From sequence record DRR378314_1453: 33,126 nucleotides of DNA, one strand, 5' to 3'. Of the stretch, positions 22,140 to 28,643 are shown one piece after another (position 1 is the stretch's first letter; the number at the start of each line of letters is the position of its first letter). The position numbers and the translations under genes are program-made. Under the pieces are notes generated by a model that did not search any database, had not been told where the DNA came from, and saw nothing but the letters and a program-made list of their open reading frames with translations.

Positions 22140-22316
22140 ATGTACACCGACCGGCTGCTGATCATTTTTATTCTCGGCACCTATCTGTTGTCACCGTCCC
22201 TGATCGACTGGTGGAGCGAAGGCGGCCGCGCCTGGTACCGCCCCTATCTGGTCTGGCTGGGGCTGATCGCATTGAGCTACTGGATCGCCAGGAGTCGGGA
22301 TGTCGATGGCCTATAG
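22140..22316 (+). CDS. cbrX: CbrX-like 58-aa membrane peptide
   Basis: Hand translation MYTDRLLIIFILGTYLLSPSLIDWWSEGGRAWYRPYLVWLGLIALSYWIARSRDVDGL; overlaps the cbrA start by 17 nt; SPxxxDWW and AWYRPY as recalled from Pseudomonas CbrX. Below the ORF-track size cutoff. Confidence 0.85.
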   Translation: MYTDRLLIIFILGTYLLSPSLIDWWSEGGRAWYRPYLVWLGLIALSYWIARSRDVDGL

Positions 22317-25251
22317 TGTCAGCGATCTGATTCTGATCGCCGGCGCCTACCTGCTGTTTCTGTTCCTGGTGGCGTGGATCACCGAGAAGGGCTGGATCCC
22401 GGCGCGTCTGGTACGCCACCCGGCGGTCTATGTGTTTTCCCTGGGGGTCTACGCCAGCGCCTGGGCGATCTACGGCTCGGTGGGCTACGCCCACGACTAC
22501 GGCTACAACTTCCTCGCCTACTTCCTGGGCATCTCCGGCGTGTTCCTGCTGGCGCCGATACTGCTGGCGCCGATCCTGCGGCTCACCACCACCTATCAGC
22601 TCAGTTCCCTGGCCGACCTGTTCGCGTTCCGCTACCGCAGCCGCCTGGCCGGCGCGCTGACCACCGTGATGATGGTGGTCGGCATGCTGCCGCTGCTGTC
22701 GATGCAGATAAAAGCGGTGGCGGAGTCGATCCAGATTCTCACCGGCGAGCCGGACCCGGCCTGGGTGGCGTTCTGGTTCTGCCTGCTGATCACGCTGTTC
22801 GCGATTCTGTTCGGCGCCCGCCATGCCACCGCCCGCGAACGCCACGAAGGCCTGGTGGTGGCCATCGCCACCGAGTCCCTGATCAAGGTGGCGGCGTTCG
22901 CGGCGGTGGCGCTGATCGGCCTGTTCGGCGTGTTCGACGGGCCCAGCGGCCTGGGCGTGTGGCTGGACCAGCACCCGGAGATGCTGTCGCGCCTGTACGC
23001 GCCGCTGCAGGACAACACCTGGCACAGCCTGATCATGGCGTTTTTCGTGTCCGCCGTGGTGATGCCGCACATGTTCCACATGGCGTTCACGGAAAACCTT
23101 AACCCGCGCGCCCTGGTGTCGGCGAGCTGGGGGCTGCCGCTGCTGTTTCTGGTGATGGCGCTGTGCGTGCCGATCATTCTGTGGGCCGCGCTGGCCAGCA
23201 ACGCCACCACCTCGCCGGACTACTTCACACTCGGCGTGGGCCTGGCCAATGGTGGCGGCGGCGCGGTGCTGGGGTATCTGGCCGGGCTGGCCGGCGCCAG
23301 CGGCATGCTGATCGTCGCCATCCTGTCGTTGTCGGGCATGTGCCTGAACCATCTGATCCTGCCCGCCAGCCCGCTCAATTCCGCCCAGGACCTGTACCGG
23401 AATCTGCTCTGGACCCGGCGCGTGCTGATCGCCGCGATTCTCGCCCTGGCCTATGTGTTCTACCGCCTGGCCGGGCCCAATCATTCGGCGGTGGAACTGG
23501 GCGTGTTGTCGTTCGTGGCCGCGCTGCAATTCGTGCCCGGCCTGATCGGCACCCTGTTCTGGCCGTCCGGCAACCGCAACGGCCTGTACGCGGGGCTGTG
23601 CGCCGGCTTCGCAGTGTGGCTGGCGGCGCTGCTGCTGCCCATGGTGTACCCGGACTGGCACGCCCAGCACCTGGTGGAAATGTTCGGCCTGCGCCGGGCC
23701 GAAGGCGCCGACCACTGGAACCAGGTGGCGATCGTGTCGGTGGCCCTCAACGGCGTGGTGTACGCGATCATCTCCATCGTCACGCCCATGTCCCGGTCGG
23801 AGCGCACCGCCGCCGAAGCCTGCGCGGTGGACAGCCTGCGCCGCCCCTACCGCTGGGATCTCAGCGCGCAGACCGTGGACGAGTTCGTCACCGCGCTGAG
23901 CGGGCCGCTGGGGCCCGGCACCGCCGCCCGGGAAGTGGACATGGCCCTCGGCGACCTGCAACTGAATGCCAACGAAACACGGCCCTACGCGCTGCGGCGT
24001 CTGCGTGACCAACTGGAGACCAACCTCTCCGGCCTGCTGGGGCCGTCCGTGGCCCATCAGCTGATGGACGACAACCTGCCCTACAAGCCCCAGGACGGCG
24101 AATCCAGCGAGGACATCCAGTTCATCGAATCGCGCCTGGAACAGTACCGCGACCGCCTCTCCGGACTGGCCGCGGAGCTGGACAGCCTGCGCCGTTTTCA
24201 CCGCCAGACCCTGCTGGAGCTGCCCATGGGCGTGATTTCCCTGGGCGGCGACGGCGAGATCATCGGCTGGAACCGGGCGGTGGAGGACCTCACCGGCATC
24301 GACGCCGAGCACACCATCGGCTCGCGGCTGGCGCATCTGCCGGCGCCCTGGGGCGACCTGCTCTCGGAGTTCGGGCGCGGCGAAGCCATGCACGAGCCGC
24401 AGCGCCATCTGGAGGTGGACGGCCAGTCCCGCTGGATCAGCCTGCACAAATCGCTGATCCAGAGCCCGGGCCCCAGCGAGCAGGCCGGCGGCCTGGTGCT
24501 GGTGCTGGAGGACATCACCGAACTGCGGCAGATGGAATCCCACCTGGCCCACAACGAGCGCCTGGCGTCCATCGGCCGGCTGGCGGCGGGCGTGGCCCAC
24601 GAGATCGGCAACCCGGTGACCGCCATCGCCTGTCTGGCACAGAACCTGGACGGCGAATGCGACCGCGAGGAGCAGACTCTCAGCGCCAGCCAGATCATGG
24701 AGCAGACCCGCCGCATCACCCGTATCGTCGAATCCCTGGTCACGTTCAGCCACTCCGGCGGCCTGCGAGATACCATCCAGGGTCCGGTGAACGTGGCCGC
24801 CACCGCCGCCGAGGCCATTGCGCTGCTACTGCTCGACCCGGACCATCGGGCACAGCGATTTGAGAACCACTGCGCGCCGGATCTGGAAGTGATCGGCGAC
24901 CCCCAGCGCCTGCTGCAGGTGTTCGTCAACCTGCTCGGCAACGCGGCGGACGCCAGCGATGCGGGCGACGCGATCCGCGTGCTCAGTGAAGACCACGGCG
25001 ACAAGGTGCGCATCCAGGTGGAGGACCACGGCCACGGCATTCCCGAGGAATTGCGTGCCGCCCTGTTCGAGCCGTTTGTTACCAGCAAACCGCCCGGCAG
25101 AGGCACGGGGCTGGGTCTGGCGCTGGTTTACAGTATTATCGAGGACCACCACGGCACGGTATGGGTGGAAAGCCCCATCGACGGCGACCGTGGAACCCGC
25201 TTTATCATCGAGCTGCCGTGCTTCAGCGCCGGCGACTTGAGCACGCATTAA
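22300..25251 (+). CDS. cbrA: CbrA-like sensor histidine kinase (SLC5/SSS transporter, STAC, PAS, HisKA, HATPase)
   Basis: ~500-aa polytopic SSS-like N-terminus (SLGVYASAWAIYGSVG), PAS region, LAAGVAHEIGNP, QVFVNLLGNA, GTGLGL; position between gluQ and cbrB/pcnB. Confidence 0.92.
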   Translation: MSMAYSVSDLILIAGAYLLFLFLVAWITEKGWIPARLVRHPAVYVFSLGVYASAWAIYGSVGYAHDYGYNFLAYFLGISGVFLLAPILLAPILRLTTTYQLSSLADLFAFRYRSRLAGALTTVMMVVGMLPLLSMQIKAVAESIQILTGEPDPAWVAFWFCLLITLFAILFGARHATARERHEGLVVAIATESLIKVAAFAAVALIGLFGVFDGPSGLGVWLDQHPEMLSRLYAPLQDNTWHSLIMAFFVSAVVMPHMFHMAFTENLNPRALVSASWGLPLLFLVMALCVPIILWAALASNATTSPDYFTLGVGLANGGGGAVLGYLAGLAGASGMLIVAILSLSGMCLNHLILPASPLNSAQDLYRNLLWTRRVLIAAILALAYVFYRLAGPNHSAVELGVLSFVAALQFVPGLIGTLFWPSGNRNGLYAGLCAGFAVWLAALLLPMVYPDWHAQHLVEMFGLRRAEGADHWNQVAIVSVALNGVVYAIISIVTPMSRSERTAAEACAVDSLRRPYRWDLSAQTVDEFVTALSGPLGPGTAAREVDMALGDLQLNANETRPYALRRLRDQLETNLSGLLGPSVAHQLMDDNLPYKPQDGESSEDIQFIESRLEQYRDRLSGLAAELDSLRRFHRQTLLELPMGVISLGGDGEIIGWNRAVEDLTGIDAEHTIGSRLAHLPAPWGDLLSEFGRGEAMHEPQRHLEVDGQSRWISLHKSLIQSPGPSEQAGGLVLVLEDITELRQMESHLAHNERLASIGRLAAGVAHEIGNPVTAIACLAQNLDGECDREEQTLSASQIMEQTRRITRIVESLVTFSHSGGLRDTIQGPVNVAATAAEAIALLLLDPDHRAQRFENHCAPDLEVIGDPQRLLQVFVNLLGNAADASDAGDAIRVLSEDHGDKVRIQVEDHGHGIPEELRAALFEPFVTSKPPGRGTGLGLALVYSIIEDHHGTVWVESPIDGDRGTRFIIELPCFSAGDLSTH

Positions 25252-25266
25252 AAAAGGAACGGCACC

Positions 25267-26592
25267 ATGAGCCATATCCTGATCGTTGAAGACGAGCCGG
25301 TGATTCGCGGCGCCCTGCGCAAACTACTGGAACGGCACGATCACTCCGTGGCTGAGGCGGAATCCGTGGAGCAGGCCCGCGAGAACGGCCTCACCCAGTG
25401 CGACCTGATCATCAGCGACCTGCGCCTGCCCGGCGAGCCCGGCACCGCGCTGATCGAGCTGGCGGCCCCGGTGCCGGTGCTGATCATGACCAGCTACGCC
25501 AGTCTGCGCTCGGCGGTGGACGCCATGCGCGAAGGCGCCGTGGATTACATCCCCAAGCCGTTCGACCACGATGAAATGCTGATGTCGGTGCAGCGGGTGC
25601 TCAAGGAAGGCCGCATCAACCGGGGCAACCAGGCGCTGCGCCAGGACATGGAGCGCACTTACCCGGTTCGCTCCATGATCGGTGACTGCGAACCGATGCG
25701 CGATCTCAAGCACCGCATCAGCCGCGTCGGCCCCACCGACACCCCGGTGCTGATTCTCGGCGAGGCCGGCACCGGCAAGGAGCTCACCGCGCGCGCCCTG
25801 CACGAACACAGCGAGCGCGCCGCCGCGCCGCTGGTAACGGTGCACTGCGCCGCTCTGCCCAAGACTCTGCAACTGGAGGAACTGTTCGGCAACGACAGCC
25901 AACCCGGCCGCATCGAGAACGCCGACGGCGGCACCTTCTTTCTTGACGAAGTGGGCGAGCTGTCCAACGAGGCGCAAAGCCGCCTGCTGACCCTGCTGGA
26001 ACAAGGGGAGATCCACCGCCAGGGCTCGCTGTCGCCGCGCCGGGTGGACGTGCGCGTGATCGCCAGCAGCCAGATGGATTTGCCGGCCCGGGTCACCGAC
26101 GGTCGCTTCCGCGAGGACCTGTATTACCGCCTCAACGTGATGGAGCTGGAGCTGCCGCCCCTGCGCGAGCGCGAGGACGATATTGAGCAACTGGCCGCCA
26201 CCCTGCTGACGCGCAGCTGCGAAAAGCTCAGCCGTGGGGTGCTGTACTTCACCGACGCCGCGCTCGCCGCCATGCGCGCCTACAGCTGGCCGGGCAACGT
26301 GCGAGAGCTGGAAAACGTGATCGAGCGGGCGGTGATTCTCACCGAAGAGGACGGCATCGGCCCCGCGCAACTGGGCCTGAACCCCAACCGCACCCCGCAG
26401 CGGGTCAGCCGGGCCAGCCTGGACCCCTCCGAGGATCTGTCCCTGGAGGACTATTTCACCCGTTTCGTACTGGAAAACCAGGACAGCATGACCGAGACCG
26501 AACTGGCCCAGAAGCTGGGGATCAGCCGGAAAAGCCTGTGGGAACGCCGGCAACGCCTGGGCATTCCACGCCGCAAGAGCACCCGCCGGTGA
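25267..26592 (+). CDS. cbrB: CbrB-like NtrC-family response regulator lacking the GAFTGA motif
   Basis: REC (ILIVEDE, DLIISDLRLPG), Walker A GEAGTGKE, Walker B FFLDE, FREDLYYRL, WPGNVRELEN, C-terminal LSLEDYF...MTETELAQKLGISRKSLWERRQRLGIPR typical of CbrB. Confidence 0.92.
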   Translation: MSHILIVEDEPVIRGALRKLLERHDHSVAEAESVEQARENGLTQCDLIISDLRLPGEPGTALIELAAPVPVLIMTSYASLRSAVDAMREGAVDYIPKPFDHDEMLMSVQRVLKEGRINRGNQALRQDMERTYPVRSMIGDCEPMRDLKHRISRVGPTDTPVLILGEAGTGKELTARALHEHSERAAAPLVTVHCAALPKTLQLEELFGNDSQPGRIENADGGTFFLDEVGELSNEAQSRLLTLLEQGEIHRQGSLSPRRVDVRVIASSQMDLPARVTDGRFREDLYYRLNVMELELPPLREREDDIEQLAATLLTRSCEKLSRGVLYFTDAALAAMRAYSWPGNVRELENVIERAVILTEEDGIGPAQLGLNPNRTPQRVSRASLDPSEDLSLEDYFTRFVLENQDSMTETELAQKLGISRKSLWERRQRLGIPRRKSTRR

Positions 26593-26646
26593 ATTTCAGT
26601 GCTTGCTTTTGCGGTTTCGATCAGTGCGGAACGGGGCCGGGAGGGG

Positions 26647-26698
26647 TGTTACCCCAGAAGTGTTACCTTACTACACAGGGCGGTAACAGGTGTGCTAC
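26647..26698. promoter_or_regulatory. CbrB-type upstream activating sequences
   Basis: TGTTAC (26647-52), TGTTACC-N14-GGTAACA palindrome (26661-88) and a degenerate TGCTAC (26693-98). Confidence 0.8.
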
Positions 26699-26740
26699 CG
26701 CGCCGGAGCTTATAACTGTTCACATTTCTTCATTTTTTTA

Positions 26741-26753
26741 TAAGTGCTTGATT
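26741..26753 (-). promoter_or_regulatory. IHF binding site
   Basis: Minus strand AATCAAGCACTTA matches WATCAANNNNTTR exactly, in an AT-rich context between the UAS and the promoter. Confidence 0.75.
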
Positions 26754-26773
26754 TGAAAGGGTTTAACAACTTG

Positions 26774-26802
26774 TTGCAATGGAAAAACCATCCATGCACT
26801 AT
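26774..26802 (+). promoter_or_regulatory. putative sigma70-type promoter of the CrcZ-like sRNA
   Basis: TTGCAA (26774-79), 17-bp spacer, CACTAT (26797-802); predicted +1 near 26809-26810, at the base of the first stem. Confidence 0.5.
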
Positions 26803-26809
26803 GAATCCC

Positions 26810-27001
26810 ACGCCACATAAGGAAAACAACAACGGCGTTAAGGCTCATAATAAGAACAAGAAAAGAAGAAGAATAAACTTGGAGCCAAAACAAGATGCCG
26901 TAACAAAAATTGGTTATGGCGCAAGGCAGAAAAAAACACAAACAATAACAACAACAGAATCAGCGCATAGGGGATCACAACCGAGGTTGTGGTCCCTTTT
27001 T
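26810..27001 (+). ncRNA. CrcZ-like Hfq/Crc-sequestering small RNA (~190 nt)
   Basis: Sits at the crcZ locus (cbrB-pcnB). AANAANAA tracts at 26825-32, 26849-76 and 26941-54; short GC stems; ends in an intrinsic terminator. The 5' end is inferred. Confidence 0.8.
26971..27001 (+). terminator. rho-independent terminator of the sRNA
   Basis: GGGATCACAAC-CGAG-GTTGTGGTCCC 11-bp stem (one G-U) followed by TTTTT. Confidence 0.9.
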
Positions 27002-27084
27002 ACTTTCCAGGCCCGCCATATCCCTCACGCCCGGCGGACCGCCCGCCCTTTCTCCAGATCGAATAACCAGCCCGTGGCAAAAAG

Positions 27085-27093
27085 TGCTACCAT
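27085..27093 (+). promoter_or_regulatory. extended -10 promoter for the pcnB operon
   Basis: TG-C-TACCAT downstream of the sRNA terminator and 35 nt before ATG 27129. Confidence 0.5.
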
Positions 27094-27128
27094 GCCGCCT
27101 TTCATTCCGTCAGGACGTTTTTTGCTCA

Positions 27129-28643
27129 ATGGCACGTAACCTTTCACCGAGGCTTAAAAGCGCCCTTACCTGGCTTGTCATGCCCGTGGTCTGGGCCGAC
27201 GCAATTCTTACCTGGGCCCTGGCCCGGCTCGCCGGCATCGTCACCTACCCGCTACGCCTGCTCGGCCGCCCTCTGAGAACATTGACCGCCGTGGCGAGCA
27301 AAGGTTCCAGCGGCGGCACTGCCCTGCCCGAGGCGCGGATCATCCCCCGGGACCAGCATCCGATCTCCCGCAAGCAGATCTCCAGAGCGGCGCTGAATGT
27401 GCTGTATGGGTTGCACGAGCAGGGTTTTCAAGCCTTTCTGGTGGGCGGCTGCCTGCGCGACCTGCTGTGCGGCCGCGAGCCCAAGGACTTCGACGTGGTC
27501 ACCGACGCCACGCCGGAGCAGGTCCAGCGCCTGTTCAAGCGCAGCCGTATCATCGGCCGCCGCTTCCAGATCGTGCATGTGCGTTTCGGCCGCGAAGTGA
27601 TCGAAGTCTCCACGTTCCGCGCCTTTCAACGGGACGACCAGGAGCTCGACCGCGACCAGCACTCCGCCCACGAGGAGACCGGGCTGGTACTGCGCGACAA
27701 CACCTGGGGCAGCATCGAGGAAGACGCCCTGCGGCGCGACTTCACCATCAATGCGCTCTACTACAATATCGCCGACTTCGCGCTGTACGACTTCGTCGGC
27801 AGCCGGCGCGCCATCGAGCGCGGCGAGATCAGCCTGATCGGCGATCCCGAACAGCGCTACCGGGAAGACCCGGTGCGCATGCTGCGCGCCGCCCGCTTCG
27901 CCGCCAAGCTGGGCTTCCGGCTGGACCAGAAGGCAAGCCGCAAGATTCCCGAACTGGCCGAGCTGCTGCTGCAGGTGCCGCCGGCGCGGCTGTTCGACGA
28001 GGTGCTGAAACTGTTCCTCAGCGGCCACGCCCGCGCCTCCATGCAGCAACTGCAGGACCTGGGCCTGTTCCATTTCCTGTTCCCGGAAACCGACCGCAGC
28101 CTGAAGGGCCCCCAGGGCAAGGTCTGGGAGAAGCTGATCCTGGCCGCCATGGACAACACCGACCGGCGGCTGGCGCAGGATAAACCGGTGACGCCGGCGT
28201 TCATCTTCGCCGTACTGTTGTGGCCGGTGACCGTGGCGCGCCTGGAAAAGCTGCGCGCCGACGGCATGCCGCCGGCTCCGGCCCTGCACAAGGCCGCCGG
28301 CTGGGCCCTGAACCAGCAGGTTCAGCACACCGCCATTCCGCGCCGCTTCTCCACCGTGATGCGGGAAATGTGGGACCTGCAGGACCGGCTGCCACGCCGT
28401 GGCGGCCGCCGCGCCGAGGCGCTGGTGCAGCATCCCCGTTTCCGGGCCGCCTACGATTTCCTGCTGCTGCGCGAGCAGGCCGGTGAACTGCCCGCCGGCC
28501 TGGGTGACTGGTGGACACGCTACCAGGACGCCGACGAGGACCAGCGCGAAGCGATGGTGCAGGCGCTCGGCCCCAACCAGGGCGCCAGCGGCGGTGGCAA
28601 GCGCCGCCGGCGCCGGCGCAAACCCGCCAACAGCCAGGGCTGA
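27129..28643 (+). CDS. pcnB: poly(A) polymerase I
   Basis: VGGCLRD, PKDFDVVT, IIGRRFQIVHV (PAP signature), RRDFTINAL, EDPVRMLR, HPRFRAAYDFL, basic C-terminal tail. Start uncertain. Confidence 0.95.
   Translation: MARNLSPRLKSALTWLVMPVVWADAILTWALARLAGIVTYPLRLLGRPLRTLTAVASKGSSGGTALPEARIIPRDQHPISRKQISRAALNVLYGLHEQGFQAFLVGGCLRDLLCGREPKDFDVVTDATPEQVQRLFKRSRIIGRRFQIVHVRFGREVIEVSTFRAFQRDDQELDRDQHSAHEETGLVLRDNTWGSIEEDALRRDFTINALYYNIADFALYDFVGSRRAIERGEISLIGDPEQRYREDPVRMLRAARFAAKLGFRLDQKASRKIPELAELLLQVPPARLFDEVLKLFLSGHARASMQQLQDLGLFHFLFPETDRSLKGPQGKVWEKLILAAMDNTDRRLAQDKPVTPAFIFAVLLWPVTVARLEKLRADGMPPAPALHKAAGWALNQQVQHTAIPRRFSTVMREMWDLQDRLPRRGGRRAEALVQHPRFRAAYDFLLLREQAGELPAGLGDWWTRYQDADEDQREAMVQALGPNQGASGGGKRRRRRRKPANSQG

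Follow-up and report, generated by a model that had tools for sequence, protein, structure and literature searches.

A small RNA between cbrB and pcnB in the Alcanivoracaceae, a probable counterpart of CrcZ that would act on Hfq without Crc

Alcanivoracaceae genomes carry a conserved small RNA (sRNA) directly downstream of a cbrB-like regulator gene, and this RNA is probably the family's counterpart of the Pseudomonas RNA CrcZ: a decoy for Hfq, driven by CbrB, transcribed by the sigma-70 polymerase and independent of Crc. It is described here at positions 26810-27001 of sequence record DRR378314_1453, a stretch of 33,126 nucleotides (nt) that is called the window below and to which all positions refer; genome-wide checks were run in the nearest genome, G001. 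The RNA has already been catalogued in a species of the same genus with no function attached to it, and what is special is its version of the circuit, with a sigma-70 promoter, a CbrB lacking the GAFTGA loop that contacts sigma-54, and no recognizable Crc. An earlier reading made from the letters of the window (the sequence-only reading) had already taken it for a CrcZ-like RNA.

The genes of the locus stand in the order cbrA-like, cbrB-like, RNA, pcnB, folK, so that the RNA lies 3' of cbrB and 5' of pcnB, which is the position of CrcZ. A Pseudomonadaceae-type locus whose RNA scores 360 bits with the Rfam CrcZ model has the same gene order, its CbrB shares 53% identity with that of the window and is almost the same at the C-terminal end that binds DNA, and the centre of its TGTTAC-N14-GTAACA lies about 138 nt 5' of the RNA (about 135 nt for the TGTTAC-N16-GTAACA of the window). 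The parts of the RNA are listed below, where an (A-R-N)n or (ARN)n tract is a run of triplets of A, purine and any base.

26810..27001, + strand: small RNA of about 192 nt, taken to start at the A of ACGCC and to end at the T run, from the covariance model R1, the transcription start site (TSS) of an orthologue and RNA-library contigs.
26810..26838, + strand: hairpin 1, ACGCC/GGCGT (26810-14 with 26834-38), with (ARN)3 in its loop at 26825-33.
26825-33, + strand: (A-R-N)n tract of three repeats, loop 1.
26842..26886, + strand: hairpin 2, GGCTC/GAGCC (26842-46 with 26882-86), enclosing the longest A-rich tract.
26849-77, + strand: (A-R-N)n tract, eight repeats at 26849-72 and five in the other register up to 26877, loop 2.
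26896..26921, + strand: hairpin 3, 9 base pairs (bp), with AACAAAAAT in its loop, from the centroid fold.
26902-10, + strand: (A-R-N)n tract of three repeats, loop 3.
26928..26958, + strand: single-stranded A-rich linker with (ARN)3, (ARN)6 and then the invariant CAGAATCAGCGCA, unpaired in the centroid fold.
26928-36, + strand: (A-R-N)n tract of three repeats, linker.
26941-58, + strand: (A-R-N)n tract of six repeats, linker.
26969..27001, + strand: intrinsic terminator, a 13-bp stem (26969-26998) with a 4-nt loop, then the T run.

The stems, the A-rich tracts and the terminator all lie where the sequence-only reading had put them, and the same stems are recovered by the centroid fold of 26800-27003; the three main binding tracts that it had counted become five when every tract with at least three repeats is included. 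The fold energy of 26800-27003 is -45.5 kcal/mol against -29.2 +/- 3.6 for shuffled sequences (z -4.53), and none of 200 shuffles folds as well.

The RNA is composed very differently from its surroundings, with 40% G+C and 45% A in 26810-27001 and 66.6% G+C in the whole window. The window holds 17 copies of the word AANAANAA against an expectation of 2.56 +/- 1.53; none of 100 shuffles reaches 17, and 11 of these copies fall within 26825-26954, all on the + strand. All 11 overlapping matches, as well as the five tracts, lie in loops or in the linker of the predicted fold. Over 36 distinct rows of the 3' (ARN)6 tract, conservation is 100% at the A and R positions and 87% at the N positions, a trend that is weak in loop 1. 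The distal face of Hfq is known to bind (A-A/R-N)n repeats. That the RNA is a decoy for another RNA-binding protein (CsrA/RsmA or ProQ) is distinctly improbable. The RNA holds a few GGA words, such as the AAGGA of 26819-23, and AAGGC occurs at both 26840 and 26923; CsrA-related sRNAs have been proposed elsewhere in the A. dieselolei genome (PMC9788540). However, the GGA of loop 1 is not conserved, other clades reading AAACAA, and the conserved feature is the AAN periodicity rather than GGA in hairpin loops. A second intergenic A-rich stretch is found in four genomes of the genus (loci L026-L029, for example L029 1470-1560), between two genes on the - strand, where a hairpin is followed by AAGGCAGAAAAAGCAAACAAAG...AAAATCAGCGCA in a manner that resembles the 3' linker of the RNA. 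As a paralogue it was rejected: it has no clear terminator and the model R1 finds no match in it, and no sRNA id beginning sRNA2411 or sRNA2412 occurs in the tables of PMC9788540.

The RNA is a family trait. A blastn search with the intergenic region found it in 19 of 19 genomes of the genus and its 3' part in five of six other genera of the family, and returned nothing in 16 other families sampled with one genome each. The alignments show hardly any change within the RNA, in contrast to drifting flanks and a drifting promoter spacer, and conservation ends at the T run. The model R1 places a single copy in 68 of 70 Alcanivoracaceae genomes, covering all nine genera and every one of the 58 good-quality genomes; the two genomes without a match have a completeness of 64% and 76%. 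In a search of the whole order, R1 detects the RNA in four of four genomes of the family, and the remaining 147 genomes yield three matches, all weak (E 3e-4 to 4e-3). Covariation, which had been suggested as a check, was examined in 38 sequences (36 distinct) under a four-helix structure: the share of paired cells is 96.2%, falling to 35-51% once the partners are slid, and seven pairs change on both sides, six of them in the terminator and one in hairpin 2, with none of 500 shuffles reaching any of these measures. These double-sided changes support the terminator (six of its 11 modelled pairs, 99% of cells paired) and, by one pair, hairpin 2 (98.9% of cells paired). In Alcanivorax sensu stricto the arms of hairpin 3 consist of different letters and still form a hairpin at the same place.

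The RNA is non-coding. Translation of the region, as a 131-aa open reading frame (ORF) at 26744-27139 or as a shorter peptide, was the outcome that had been named as fatal to an RNA, and it is hardly credible. In 22 of 38 orthologues one + frame runs through the RNA without a stop, and a partial ORF is called by GeneMarkS-2 in the orthologue in Table S8 of PMC9788540; nevertheless, T-poor AAN repeats stay open by composition alone, no + frame is open in the other 16, and the open frame differs among the 22 (+0 in 16, +1 in three, +2 in three), so insertions and deletions have not come in threes. In one close relative 29 nt are inserted. The 131-aa ORF lacks conservation in the 38 orthologues, reads through the terminator and has no match in a Pfam search, and the id of the orthologue is absent from the ribosome profiling (Ribo-seq) table of PMC9788540.

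A discrete transcript, as had been expected, is documented in a species of the same genus. In the differential RNA sequencing (dRNA-seq) study of A. dieselolei B-5, supplementary Table S2 lists the orthologue as sRNA4261059, a primary transcript on the + strand in the intergenic region from a 'nitrogen regulation protein NR(I)' gene to poly(A) polymerase (PMC9788540); it has the same neighbours and the same start letters. Its TSS is the A of ACGCC, which is window position 26810 and the start that had been proposed, and its end is at the terminator (PMC9788540). In the BLAST table of that study it is 83% identical to a row for A. venustensis, and by eye the letters of that row are those of window 26810-26971. 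Table S2 gives sRNA4261059, in reads per million (RPM), 938504 and 696156 on hexadecane with and without terminator exonuclease (TEX+ and TEX-), 258349 and 55741 likewise on acetate, and 63853 and 8719 in strand-specific RNA sequencing (ssRNA-seq); for transfer-messenger RNA (tmRNA) the same columns read 286, 913, 17454, 14607, 59591 and 74392, with 286 and 913 being the C16 libraries (PMC9788540). In the ssRNA-seq of Table S16 its mean is 1353.6 transcripts per million on hexadecane and 413.7 on acetate (log2 fold change 3.91, p 2.5e-11; PMC9788540). This rise on hexadecane relative to acetate fits the logic of CrcZ, that is, release on the less preferred substrate. Contigs from RNA libraries (four runs from four studies) cover the stretch 26810-27001 as well; since contigs cannot give ends or levels, they are not counted as proof of a discrete transcript, and a 169-nt contig spanning 26808-26976 (library X14) and a 120-nt contig of depth 1242 with the Alcanivorax sensu stricto version (library X3) are hints only.

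On the opposite strand, Table S2 lists an antisense 'sRNA4261221' over the orthologue (window 26810-26971, - strand) and an antisense 'sRNA4261068' over the promoter and the 3' end of cbrB (PMC9788540). In ssRNA-seq, sRNA4261221 reaches about 2% of the level of the sense RNA (1335 against 63853), and in dRNA-seq it has almost no signal (PMC9788540); it may be strand bleed-through.

Given these ends, it is very improbable that the RNA is a cis-acting leader or attenuator of read-through into pcnB, or simply a stable piece from the 3' end of the cbrB mRNA, in either case without a function in trans. Such an origin would agree with the finding of no terminator between the cbrB stop and the RNA, with the read-through from cbrB into crcZ reported for Pseudomonas in a 2022 review, and with the short distance to pcnB, which begins 83-130 nt past the terminator depending on its uncertain start codon (GTG at 27084 or ATG at 27131). 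Against it, the orthologue has its own TSS with more TEX+ than TEX- reads and ends at the terminator in the tables of PMC9788540, conservation stops at the T run, and the promoter hexamers are conserved.

The upstream region contains the following elements.

26774..26802, + strand: sigma-70-type core promoter, -35 TTGCAA (26774-79), 17-nt spacer, -10 CACTAT (26797-802), from conservation and a published call.
26661..26688, + strand: candidate site for CbrB, TGTTAC-N16-GTAACA, its centre about 135 nt before the RNA start, proposed from its letters.
26647-52, + strand: further TGTTAC beside the candidate site.
26694-98, + strand: degenerate GTTAC-type half-site beside the candidate site.
26741..26753, - strand: putative site for integration host factor (IHF), fitting WATCAANNNNTTR.

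The -10 hexamer ends 7 nt before the RNA begins. All 38 Alcanivorax-type loci preserve the two hexamers with exactly 17 nt between them, the spacer itself differing in sequence, and the promoter of sRNA4261059 is called 'Sigma 70' in Table S5 of PMC9788540. No GG-N10-GC of a -24/-12 (sigma-54) promoter was seen by eye at the right place upstream of the RNA. Two candidates for it were rejected: TGG(26780)...GC(26796) lies 15 nt apart instead of 12, 3 nt too far, with a GG that is not conserved, and TTGCA at 26774 has no GG 10 nt upstream. In the candidate CbrB site, TGTTACC and GTAAC are invariant in 39 distinct sequences of the family, and a scan of the nearest genome for TGTTAC-N12-18-GTAACA returns this site and no other; the 2022 review gives the consensus in Pseudomonas as TGTTAC-N12-14-GTAACA-N15-19-GTAACA. 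The block TAAGTnnnTGATTT at the putative IHF site is only partly conserved.

A second palindrome, TGTTAC-N17-GTAACA, is found in locus L179 (G005:C1:1720400-1721900; locus 184-212, 688-717), about 500 nt ahead of the gene of a periplasmic amino-acid-binding protein, and AAAACAACAACAAAG lies directly 5' of the ribosome-binding site of this gene. From these letters, CbrB and Hfq could each have the gene as a target. Table S16 of PMC9788540 lists an sRNA induced on alkane whose coordinates fall in the L179 range.

The regulator itself differs as well. Aligned to the Pseudomonadaceae-type CbrB, the CbrB of the window has a 9-residue gap exactly at GAFTGA, and the loop is absent or degenerate in all Alcanivorax-type loci (L030-L066, L105, L106). 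Among 80 cbrB-type loci, 77 could be evaluated for loop and promoter, three having too little downstream DNA, and they divide as follows.

CbrB without the loop, Alcanivorax type, 38 loci: TTGC-N17-CAnnAT-N5-8-ACGC in 38, the sigma-54 motif TGGYAY-N5-YTGC in 0.
CbrB with GAFTGA or GSFTGA, 36 loci: TGGYAY-N5-YTGC in 26, most of these with large AANAANAA clusters.
CbrB-type without the loop, distant and probably not CbrB, 3 loci: neither promoter pattern.

A decayed loop ('...GAVAGR...' and the like) is seen in three deep-branching Alcanivorax-type loci (L064, L067, L105), and the two decayed-loop loci with enough downstream DNA already carry the new promoter. The nearest genome has rpoN and only three activators of this kind, of which the other two keep an intact GAFTGA or GSFTGA; the loss of the loop is therefore specific to CbrB.

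Hfq, the proposed target, is present and well conserved. The Hfq of the nearest genome matches that of P. aeruginosa with E 1.8e-36, the first 66 residues being nearly identical, with Phe for Tyr at position 25. On the other hand, the Crc part of the Hfq/Crc titration that the sequence-only reading had quoted for CrcZ finds no partner here. With a Pseudomonadaceae Crc as query (E 5.9e-164 to PDB 4jg3), no Crc gene was found in 70 genomes of the family, where the matches reach at most 50 bits and have 24-32% identity. In the nearest genome the match falls at the exonuclease III (ExoIII) gene, and the Exo_endo_phos proteins there are an E. coli-type ExoIII, another family member and a nuclease-like protein, none of them Crc. 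Across the order, 125 of 151 genomes match the Crc query at E<=1e-30, a level at which Crc is not separable from ExoIII paralogues; a homologue at that threshold is present in most other families of the order and in none of the four Alcanivoracaceae genomes searched.

The comparison with CrcZ of Pseudomonas and Azotobacter (RF01675) shows both likeness and divergence. Both RNAs occupy the slot between cbrB and pcnB, have TGTTAC...GTAACA at a similar distance upstream (in the window as a candidate CbrB site), display many unpaired AANAANAA tracts, end in an intrinsic terminator and reach higher levels on a less preferred carbon source. CrcZ is about twice as long, is matched by the Rfam model and has a -24/-12 promoter, whereas in Alcanivorax the promoter of the orthologue is called sigma-70, CbrB lacks GAFTGA and Crc was not found in the family genomes searched. 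The Rfam model has 398 positions and a gathering score of 95 bits, which agrees with the earlier estimate of an RNA about half the length of CrcZ (192 nt). It scores above the cut-off in two other families of the order (three of three and four of four genomes), and these scores across the order indicate that CrcZ relatives are widespread beyond the family named in reviews. In the second of these families the four genomes reach 101-111 bits, and several further families give scores below the cut-off.

CrcZ-like RNAs of Ketobacter, uncultured Moraxellaceae, HdN1 and other Pseudomonadales also lie downstream of a CbrB homologue and have AANAANAA clusters, with 11-35 AANAANAA per 750 nt against 8-14 in the Alcanivorax type; unlike the latter, these loci keep GAFTGA/GSFTGA, with a TGGCAC-N5-YTGC promoter in 26 of 36. 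The catalogue of A. dieselolei lists sRNA4261059 as one of 549 sRNAs and proposes no function for it, and in the main text of that study its id is absent, 'CrcZ' occurs 0 times and no link to CrcZ is made (PMC9788540). In literature searched for CrcZ or CbrB with Alcanivorax and screened by title and the start of the abstract, no published link of the RNA to CrcZ was found; with CrcZ and five other taxon names, none of the papers listed among the matches contains 'CrcZ'.

An Hfq-dependent sRNA that pairs with target mRNAs, using a single-stranded seed such as the linker with CAGAATCAGCGCA, is an unlikely explanation that nonetheless deserves attention, and it is compatible with some decoy action. 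The features of that class, an (ARN)n tract and a Rho-independent U-tailed terminator, are present, the most conserved part of the RNA is the single-stranded stretch just 5' of the terminator, and the RNA is short for a decoy that binds several Hfq. The sole Rfam match, a weak one, is to CyaR, over 26926-27002; at 17.5 bits and E 2.2, against a gathering score of 47, it is at chance level and was rejected. The place of the RNA, the upstream site and the A-rich tracts in three loops and the linker parallel CrcZ instead, and the very high abundance in Table S2 of PMC9788540 suits titration.

Under the reading as a CrcZ counterpart, the kinase CbrA would activate CbrB, which would bind the conserved TGTTAC-N16-GTAACA about 135 nt upstream of the RNA start and, its sigma-54 contact loop being lost, would stimulate polymerase with the housekeeping sigma at the weak TTGCAA-N17-CACTAT. 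The RNA would then present five unpaired (A-R-N)n tracts, two of them with 6-8 repeats, held open by short GC stems. The A-rich tracts would bind the distal face of Hfq and the U tail of the terminator would go to the proximal face, and Hfq would be drawn off those mRNAs on which it acts as a repressor at A-rich sites close to the ribosome-binding site, with no involvement of Crc. With the RNA high on alkane and low on acetate, catabolic genes for less preferred substrates would be released.

Several points weigh against this reading. The Rfam CrcZ model gives no match in the window at its gathering score, none at E<=10 in 26550-27150 (601 nt) and none at E<=0.001 in four of four Alcanivoracaceae genomes, as had been foreseen for an RNA too diverged for standard models. 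Stem 1 and the outer part of stem 3 are nearly invariant, so that covariation says nothing on either of them, and in loop 2 the A, R and N positions are conserved equally. The promoter is weak by consensus, with 7 of 12 hexamer letters, and a promoter scan of 26400-27300 lists no sigma-70-like site; it is kept as the promoter because it is conserved and an orthologue has a published TSS, and a weak consensus is presumably usual for activator-dependent promoters. The candidate CbrB site has a spacer of 16 nt instead of the 12-14 nt of the Pseudomonas consensus, the reversed control pattern also matches once, and over the genome TGTTAC-N12-18-GTAACA shows no enrichment against that control. As the 38 loci without the loop belong to a single clade, the link between GAFTGA and promoter type rests on a single evolutionary event, and the sigma-70 pattern was derived from the same sequences. 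In Pseudomonas strong repression needs Crc, which was not found in the family. The very high RPM of Table S2 also sits badly with Table S16, where sRNA4261059 ranks 12 among the sRNAs on hexadecane and 131 on acetate, and the main text names tmRNA the most abundant sRNA (PMC9788540). Finally, we infer Hfq binding and titration, the dependence on CbrB, the use of sigma-70 and the regulatory outcome.

The protein genes around the RNA are the following.

22300..25251, + strand: ORF of a cbrA-like sensor kinase, 983 aa, with Pfam PAS_4, HisKA and HATPase_c and a membrane N-terminal half.
25267..26592, + strand: cbrB-like response regulator of the NtrC family, 441 aa, with receiver (REC), AAA+ and helix-turn-helix (HTH) parts, by Pfam Response_reg and Sigma54_activat.
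27084..28643, + strand: pcnB, poly(A) polymerase, with Pfam PolyA_pol, PolyA_pol_RNAbd and PolyA_pol_arg_C.

The named relatives of the cbrB-like regulator come from Alcanivorax and Alloalcanivorax species. A Pfam search with the N-terminal 600 aa of the kinase gave no match at E<=1, and its likeness to the transporter-like domain of CbrA is thus not established. Between the terminator and pcnB, 27003-27083 (with CCCTTTCTCCAGATCGAATAACC and AAAAAGTGCTACCATGCC) is conserved in the closest relatives and may hold a promoter or leader of pcnB.

NtrC-family AAA+ proteins that are without the sigma-54 contact loop and work with the sigma-70 polymerase are known from other bacteria. Some examples are NtrC of Rhodobacter capsulatus, NtrC of Caulobacter and VpsR of Vibrio cholerae, which according to the abstract of a published study is without conserved residues needed for sigma-54. 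The CbrB of the window is like them in this respect and in adjoining a promoter without -24/-12 elements. Unlike them, it has lost the loop in a lineage with close relatives that still rely on sigma-54 at the same target gene, and the upstream site and its distance have been kept.

A wider scenario can be put forward tentatively, and it may well prove wrong: the ancestor of the Alcanivoracaceae would have rebuilt the whole Cbr-CrcZ circuit, with the CbrB loop lost while the enhancer site and its distance were kept, the core promoter changed from -24/-12 to -35/-10, Crc lost and the decoy shrunk to about 190 nt. The deep-branching lineage in which the loop has decayed (...GAVAGR...) and the new promoter is already in place would show this change midway, and the RNA would be the dominant small transcript of alkane-grown cells, setting the preference between acetate and alkane of the ocean's main oil degraders through Hfq alone.

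The cbrA-cbrB-crcZ arrangement is described only in Pseudomonas and Azotobacter according to the 2022 review, and the RNA contradicts this confinement to the Pseudomonadaceae. The locus may also be an example from nature in which an enhancer-binding protein and the promoter that it serves went over from sigma-54 to sigma-70 together, with the upstream site kept; such a shift, if true, bears on the contacts that activators make with two forms of polymerase. Moreover, the RNA would test whether an A-rich decoy works on Hfq without Crc. Alcanivorax species bloom after oil spills and the basis of their narrow substrate preference is not settled; for this preference the RNA offers a concrete and testable control point.

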